Positions 12,110-12,216 of a stretch of DNA of 19,860 bases are shown here, piece after piece. The stretch spans positions 1 through 19,860 of the IMG/VR virus record IMGVR_UViG_2778261687_000001; one strand, given 5' to 3'. The translations under genes were made by a program, and so were the position numbers. Numbering within the stretch: position 1 is the first letter of the stretch; each line of letters starts with the position of its first letter. This stretch comes from a virus. Its lineage: Duplodnaviria; Heunggongvirae; Uroviricota; Caudoviricetes. The notes below the pieces were generated by a model. The model was not told the DNA's origin and did not search any database. It saw only the letters and a list, made by a program, of their open reading frames with translations.

Positions 12110-12138
12110 TTGCAAAAGTAGATAAAAAGGCATATATT
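12110..12138 (+). promoter_or_regulatory. pR'-like late promoter (TTGCAA, 17-bp spacer, TATATT)
   Basis: -35 at 12110-12115 and -10 at 12133-12138, 8 bp after the Q-like stop; a terminator follows about 50 nt downstream. Confidence 0.5.
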
Positions 12139-12188
12139 TCGTGTGAATCTGATATTTTGCCGTTTTTATACGTGATGGCAAAGCTAGT

Positions 12189-12216
12189 AAAACCCGTGAC
12201 CGAGCGGGTTTTTTTA
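12189..12216 (+). terminator. tR'-like intrinsic terminator
   Basis: AAAACCCG-loop-CGGGTTTTTTT hairpin with a T-run. Confidence 0.6.

Follow-up and report, generated by a model that had tools for sequence, protein, structure and literature searches.

What role is played by a promoter-like sequence that lies directly behind a Q-like gene and is followed, a short distance on, by an intrinsic terminator? The question was raised by positions 12110-12216 of a 19,860-nucleotide stretch of viral DNA (Caudoviricetes; IMG/VR record IMGVR_UViG_2778261687_000001), the whole of which was analyzed and is referred to below as the window. The sequence-only reading had likened the arrangement to pR' and tR' of lambda, in which a short constitutive transcript is extended by Q-modified polymerase. 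Our analyses indicate that the element is very probably the late promoter pR', the Q-utilisation site and the first terminator tR' of a phage-82-type lambdoid prophage of E. coli, and that its RNA of ~71 nt is related to IsrJ. The anatomy, conservation and homology described here were computed; the start site, the pause, termination and Q dependence we infer from the phage 82 literature. The features of the Q gene and the cis-acting element are as follows.

11437-12102, plus strand: Q antiterminator gene of the Q82 family, 221 aa (PF06323, PHROG 304, identity to phage 82 Q).
12110-12115, plus strand: -35 hexamer TTGCAA, read from the sequence; the same hexamer is present at the end of phage 82 Q (X92588).
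12116-12132, plus strand: 17-bp spacer AAGTAGATAAAAAGGCA, the predicted position of the QBE.
12133-12138, plus strand: -10 hexamer TATATT, from the sequence and its conservation across loci.
12145, plus strand: predicted transcription start (+1, a G), 7 nt past the -10 hexamer and, in the alignment to the 82-like leader, opposite the first A of the AAA with which 82pR' transcripts start.
12150-12158, plus strand: predicted sigma70-dependent pause element, with TG at +6/+7 and the -10-like TATTTT at +9 to +14 (features of PMC5001585).
12159-12161, plus strand: GCC at +15 to +17, a discriminator-like G/C element, in sequence and position as in 82pR' (PMC5001585).
12169-12170, plus strand: predicted pause site at +25/+26 (T, then A), in a register identical to that of 82pR'.
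12155-12183, plus strand: predicted leader hairpin 1, +11 to +39, 10 pairs, about -9.7 kcal/mol, from folding prediction; a hairpin here is also part of the Rfam isrJ consensus structure.
12189-12212, plus strand: hairpin of the intrinsic terminator tR', with G+C-rich arms AAAACCCGU/GCGGGUUUU and a tract of seven T at 12209-12215.

The identification of the upstream gene as Q had been considered weak but is in fact firm, as its product gave a full-length match to Pfam PF06323 (E = 2e-90; the sole Pfam match) and a match to PHROG 304 (E = 3e-105), and shares 76.5% identity with phage 82 Q (X92588). PF06323 represents the Q82 family; the three families of Q have no obvious sequence similarity to one another, and the mechanism of the Q82 family has been named an open priority (PMC9388147). 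Given the sole match to PF06323, a Q of the lambda type (Q-lambda, PF03589) or of the phage 21 type (PF06530) was ruled out. When solved structures were searched by sequence with the window Q, no Q structure was retrieved and the best PDB match was an unrelated lysin (E = 0.1). The window gene ends in TAG (12100-12102) at a position where phage 82 has CAG and then 8 more codons; with Q being 8 residues shorter than Q82, the -35 hexamer of the window, 7 nt past the stop codon, falls outside the coding sequence. Every leader variant with a Q of 92% or higher identity to the window Q shares this stop 7 nt before the -35, and Q proteins 95-100% identical to it were found at many loci (among 80 viral contigs and in E. 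coli genomes). The extra codons of phage 82 (QQNIAKLD) overlap the -35 hexamer and spacer, and the window keeps them as non-coding DNA at 12100-12126 (TAG CAA AGT ATT GCA AAA GTA GAT AA). The persistence of these codons in non-coding form suggests that the conserved C-terminal tail of the Q82 family is perhaps shaped by the promoter and QBE DNA and not by protein function.

The two hexamers, the 17-bp spacer and the terminator, whose hairpin begins 50 nt after the -10 hexamer, were all found where the sequence-only reading had placed them. Its description of the promoter as strong and consensus-like was overstated, in view of the fact that the hexamers match 9 of 12 consensus positions and have no extended -10, and that 21 sites of this quality were observed on both strands of the window versus 28 +/- 5 in shuffled sequences, such that the hexamers by themselves are not above chance. 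The composite motif TTGCAA-N17-TATATT-N11-TGNTATNNT, unlike the bare hexamers, is above chance: it had a single match in the window, which was exact, even when 3 mismatches were permitted, versus a chance expectation of 0.01 per window and matches in 3 of 200 shuffles. Its conservation, described below, adds weight. The QBE of PR' sits between the -35 and -10 elements (PMC4914094), and it was on this basis that the spacer was assigned as the predicted QBE. It is identical to the 82-type spacer AACTGGATTAAAAATCA at 12 of 17 positions; since it differs at the other 5, and since the window Q is without the last 8 residues of Q82, recognition of this QBE by its cognate Q, and the activity of Q itself, are assumptions of our reading.

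The transcribed leader was compared with that of 82pR', whose pause element is a close -10 match with an extended -10, whose GCC at +15 to +17 is required for the pause and is followed by an AT-rich segment, and whose major pause is at +25/+26, with U at +25 of a wild-type transcript that starts AAA (PMC5001585). The window has a T-rich stretch between its GCC and the T at +25, and TGATAT (12150-12155) was invariant in an alignment of 26 leaders. From the predicted start at 12145, which was placed by homology to phage 82, the leader RNA would begin AAATCTGATAT, and by the same homology polymerase would be expected to pause at +25/+26. A pause layout of the lambda type (element at +1 to +6, pause at +16/+17) was ruled out by the location of the window element at +6 to +14. 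A text search of the literature with the leader sequence string returned only unrelated papers.

X92588 ends inside the promoter (...ATATTGCAAAACTGGATTAA, which includes the TTGCAA -35). The match to 82pR' was made via the published text features and the 82-like phage PhiR47_2, which continues AAAATCATATATTTTATGTAAATCTGATATTTTGCCAATGTTGTACG, fits all of the published 82pR' descriptors and aligns to the window without gaps. Shared between the phage 82 type and the window are the Q family, TTGCAA, TATATT (in the 82-like phage) and the 17-bp spacer; in the leader, TG at +6/+7, the -10-like sequence at +9 to +14, GCC at +15 to +17 and T at +25; and an intrinsic terminator within about 80 nt. The differences are that +1 of the window is G versus the first A of AAA in 82pR'; that its terminator reads AAACCCG.../...CGGGTTT versus AAGCCCGAGG.../...CCTTGGGCTT in the 82 type, with hairpin 1 differing in sequence as well; that the terminator ends at +71 versus about +78 in PhiR47_2; and that, as above, Q is 8 residues shorter and 5 of 17 spacer positions are changed.

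With lambda the element would share a logic, namely a constitutive late promoter by Q, a sigma70-dependent promoter-proximal pause and a terminator and, as in Stx phages, a short lysogen RNA that Q-modified polymerase extends (PMC7547250, PMC9388147). However, Q-lambda (PF03589) is unrelated in sequence to the PF06323 Q of the window (PMC9388147), and lambda pauses at +16/+17 and terminates at +193 to give the 6S RNA of ~190 nt (PMC4914094), as against a predicted ~71 nt for the window RNA. Of the pR'/tR' interpretation, then, the late promoter and first terminator stood, supported by the Q82-family Q and the pause register, but phage 82 replaces lambda as the closest model.

Folding of the RNA from 12145-12216 predicted two hairpins at -21.8 kcal/mol (z = -3.3), and none of 200 shuffles folded as well. 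The second is the terminator, which alone is modest in stability (about -10.5 to -11.6 kcal/mol) and contains a U-G pair where relatives have C-G. Compensatory changes were present at 6 of the 8 pairs of its stem across 26 leaders, and the terminated RNA is predicted to end near +65 to +71, that is, to be ~65-71 nt long. The consensus terminator scan of the window did not list the terminator at 12189-12215, likely a consequence of the maximal stem consuming the first T residues of the tail. Homopolymer lengths at 12209-12230 differ among near-identical relatives (the same place in loci L001-L035): the terminator T-tract comprises 5 to 8 T, or 9 in L007, in which the last G of the stem is changed to T, the C-run after it comprises 3 to 6 C, and the A-run beyond is likewise variable. 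This variation could reflect tuning of termination efficiency, or slippage or sequencing noise.

Hairpin 1, spanning roughly +11/+13 to +36/+39, was predicted in four sequence classes with differing stems: UUUGCCGU/GAUGGCAAA in the window, UGCCA/UGGCA in 82-like phages, GUCG/CGAC in IsrJ and AUGCUGCC/GGCGGCAU in a Klebsiella class. It is absent from a short-leader class, in which the terminator directly follows the pause site. RNAalifold on the MAFFT leader alignment recovered the terminator and not hairpin 1, and by our reading of the alignment the register of the 5' arm of this hairpin differs between clades; hairpin 1 is thus predicted from the folds of individual sequences. Hairpin 1 forms too late to influence the +25 pause, and it may be an insulator of terminator folding or a stabiliser of the RNA. 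As regards coding potential, a 22-codon ORF from the ATG at 12175 was dismissed upon reading of the sequence, as it is without a Shine-Dalgarno and crosses the terminator, and neither a minus-strand ORF (11996-12307) nor a small ORF (12289-12417) had a family match.

Conservation was assessed in 80 viral contigs, 12 phage records and 57 loci taken from genomes that represent many genera of enterobacteria. A promoter was counted where the 3' end of Q carried TTGCAA with at most 1 mismatch, a spacer of 17 +/- 1 bp and a -10 resembling TATATT. Of 102 non-redundant loci of the Q82 family, 94 had the promoter, and in 88 of the 94 an intrinsic terminator lay downstream, the U-tract of which ended at a median of +72 (interquartile range 70-77). 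The composite motif was exact in 102 of 150 fetched loci, at an equal offset from Q in nearly all; in the two Salmonella phage loci it lies about 860 bp past Q. Terminators at the equivalent position belonged to at least 5 unrelated sequence classes. Homology to distant relatives covers Q, the promoter and the pause element and ends at 12155-12161 (+11 to +17), homology to ~90%-identical relatives ends at 12214-12215, in the last T residues of the terminator, and the cargo at 12400-12900 was common to only 36 of 141 loci. These breakpoints imply that Q and its cis site are one unit and travel together, that the remainder of the leader is a second unit and that the cargo behind it is a third.

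An Rfam scan of related loci also brought in IsrJ, a 74-nt RNA detected in Salmonella, deletion of which makes the bacterium less invasive and which restores invasion when supplied on a plasmid (PMC2330248). Rfam describes isrJ (RF01393) as an "Hfq binding RNA" with the consensus uguAaauCUGAUAuCGucGcCAuAg...AGCCccGC...GCggGGCUuU, and this family appears to be the common enterobacterial variant of the Q82-type pR' leader. Among loci related to that of the window, its model matched Gifsy-1 at 100 bits and Enterobacter phage ENT1 at 73 bits, and in ENT1 isrJ directly follows Q. The promoter of Gifsy-1 IsrJ is TTGCAA-AACTGGATTAAAACGGC-TATATT, with a 17-bp spacer of the 82 type. In Gifsy-1 (3178-4121 of the locus) the pR' motif is about 860 bp past Q (AntQ), unlike in the window, and between the two are isrK, c4-like antisense elements (Rfam C4, c4-a1b1), orf45 and the antirepressor gene anrP, an insertion that looks like an immI-like module. 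In Salmonella phage SW-37 the motif (about 4013 of the locus) is at the same offset from Q as in Gifsy-1.

RF01393 (gathering score 37 bits) did not match the window at its gathering score, nor 12050-12400 at E up to 10, where Rfam returned chance-level similarities only (STnc370; Trp, Phe and Leu leaders; snoRNAs) and no isrK; across the whole window, the sole Rfam match at gathering score was a tRNA. A covariance model was also built, for which 17 leaders, Gifsy-1 IsrJ among them, were taken from other clades and the clade of the window was left out. It matched 12142-12215 over its full length at 46.3 bits (E = 7e-10), the runner-up being at 14 bits, which implies that the window RNA is a divergent member of the IsrJ leader family. 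The two leaders are collinear, with 45 of 77 aligned columns identical, 17 of these in the first 22, and have a common plan of about 74 nt (5' UGUAAAUCUGAUAU, hairpin, A-rich linker, terminator), but the hairpin and terminator sequences differ. PMC2330248 and PMC4825925 treat IsrJ as an island sRNA and do not describe it as a pR' leader. It is highly transcribed in lysogens without lytic transcription (10.1101/787010), which is the behaviour expected of a pR' leader, and it appears to be a leader RNA that starts at a late promoter of the 82 type and is terminated. If so, the Q82 family already has a short pR' RNA that was detected in vivo and has a reported phenotype.

The sequence-only reading had also suggested that the short RNA could be an sRNA in its own right. 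An alternative is that the element is chiefly an IsrJ-type sRNA gene, whose ~71-nt RNA is under selection and acts in trans via Hfq, with Q read-through secondary. The alternative overlaps our main reading. Supporting it, besides the common leader family and the invasion phenotype of IsrJ, is the precedent of StxS in Stx phages, an Hfq-bound regulator from the terminated pR' RNA that acts in trans (PMC7547250). RNase E cleavage of a 258-nt transcript gives StxS as its 3' fragment of 74 nt (PMC7547250), whereas the ~71 nt of the window RNA are the predicted primary transcript. The predicted fold of the window leader is also sRNA-like in shape (single-stranded 5' end, hairpin, A-rich linker, terminator and U tail), and an Hfq-bound sRNA role besides that of leader may be envisaged. 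Conversely, conservation is highest at +1 to +17, which coincides exactly with the DNA pause element; it is therefore silent on RNA function and can be explained without selection at the RNA level, and the remainder of the leader is swapped freely among clades, one of which is without hairpin 1. On balance we consider it unlikely that the sRNA is the chief function.

To place the pR'-tR' assignment in its genomic setting, the window was found to be part of an E. coli lambdoid prophage: a prophage of strain OkiPb01716 has 99.9% identity to 11400-12400, a stretch that was matched in 1365 of 5426 complete E. coli genomes (about a quarter). In OkiPb01716 the order is early regulators, hokD, a DUF968 protein, RusA, Q and two hypothetical genes, followed by a DNA methyltransferase, tRNA-Gly, holins, endolysin, terminase and portal. 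RusA and DUF968 genes are also upstream of Q in the window, and its lysis genes are on the same strand as Q, with terminase and portal next in the near-identical prophage. In the near-identical RefSeq copy that was inspected, no annotation was present between Q and the next gene. The downstream features of the window are as follows.

12357-14928, plus strand: variable cargo behind tR', from family matches and the breakpoint at 12214-12215.
12357-13070, plus strand: membrane-protein-like ORF.
13151-13441, plus strand: PHROG 331 ORF.
13592-14638, plus strand: DNA methyltransferase.
14856-14928, plus strand: tRNA-Gly(TCC).
13428, 15214, 15254 and 15365, plus strand: further terminator-like hairpins ahead of the holin (terminator scan).
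15406-16610, plus strand: first late genes proper (holin 15406-15795, endolysin 16044-16610).

At the position equivalent to that of tRNA-Gly, related phages have different tRNAs (Arg, Asn, Ile, Phe, Thr). Between the cargo and the holin, 15207-15380 consists of tandem plus-strand units of a hairpin and T-tract (15214-15232, 15254-15271, 15365-15380), with a sub-threshold similarity to Rfam mmgR (23 bits, E = 0.016) and no family above threshold; at the equivalent position, EHEC prophages have short anti-sRNAs of the AsxR/AgvB type (PMC4104026).

The early region of a near-identical E. coli copy contains pseudogenes, and the prophage may be defective. Accordingly, the element might be an intact-looking relic, in which a truncated Q or a dead prophage leaves the short RNA as the sole product, a scenario for which the CAG-to-TAG change that ends Q 8 codons before Q82 could also be cited. 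We regard it as improbable: Q proteins 95-100% identical occur at the many loci noted above, the early stop is kept in all variants of at least 92% identity, all cis elements are exact, and the downstream lysis and terminase genes are intact ORFs with strong family matches. Least credible, and in our judgment very improbable, is that a chance promoter-like site lies beside a terminator that ends the early (Q) operon or, in a variant, that the element attenuates the gene at 12357 independently of Q, since the chance-level frequency of the hexamers and the sub-threshold similarity to Trp, Phe and Leu leaders (E = 0.8-3.4) that could be raised in its favour are set against the rarity of the composite motif and its in-register conservation across many enterobacterial genera, Rfam leader scores far under the gathering scores, a downstream gene that varies among relatives where the leader is constant, and two hairpins that coexist in the predicted fold with no alternative antiterminator pairing, which led us to reject attenuation.

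Under the preferred reading, a pR'-tR' switch of the phage 82 type, sigma70 polymerase would start constitutively at about 12145 from TTGCAA-17-TATATT, including in the lysogen. Sigma70 would then re-bind the non-template TGaTATTTT (+6 to +14) and, with GCC at +15 to +17, hold polymerase at +25/+26. Without Q, polymerase would escape from the pause, transcribe hairpin 1 and the terminator and release an RNA of ~65-71 nt. After induction, Q (11437-12102) would be expressed from the early operon, and Q on the spacer DNA at 12116-12132 would load onto the paused complex with NusA to give a terminator-resistant polymerase. The modified polymerase would pass tR' and the hairpins at 13428, 15214, 15254 and 15365 and so reach the cargo, lysis and morphogenesis genes.

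For annotation, these results show where the late operon is predicted to start and where the variable cargo has its left edge in a prophage type present in the 1365 of 5426 complete E. coli genomes, and they link the literature on IsrJ with that on the Q82 late promoter. The promoter-pause-terminator switch is in itself textbook; the part worth pursuing is the IsrJ family link and the use of such RNAs as regulators in E. coli. A more speculative and less likely reading is that the ~71-nt leader functions as part of a widespread "IsrJ family" of pR' leaders in Q82-type prophages across Enterobacteriaceae. In such a family the 5' end would be fixed by the pause element, whereas the body (hairpin 1, linker, terminator) would be exchangeable and would have been recruited in one clade after another to regulate host genes with Hfq bound. 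If true, the window carries an unannotated E. coli counterpart of IsrJ, and IsrJ itself, like StxS, would have to be regarded as a by-product of a late promoter. The divergent versions in E. coli prophages are candidates for regulatory roles, as StxS was.
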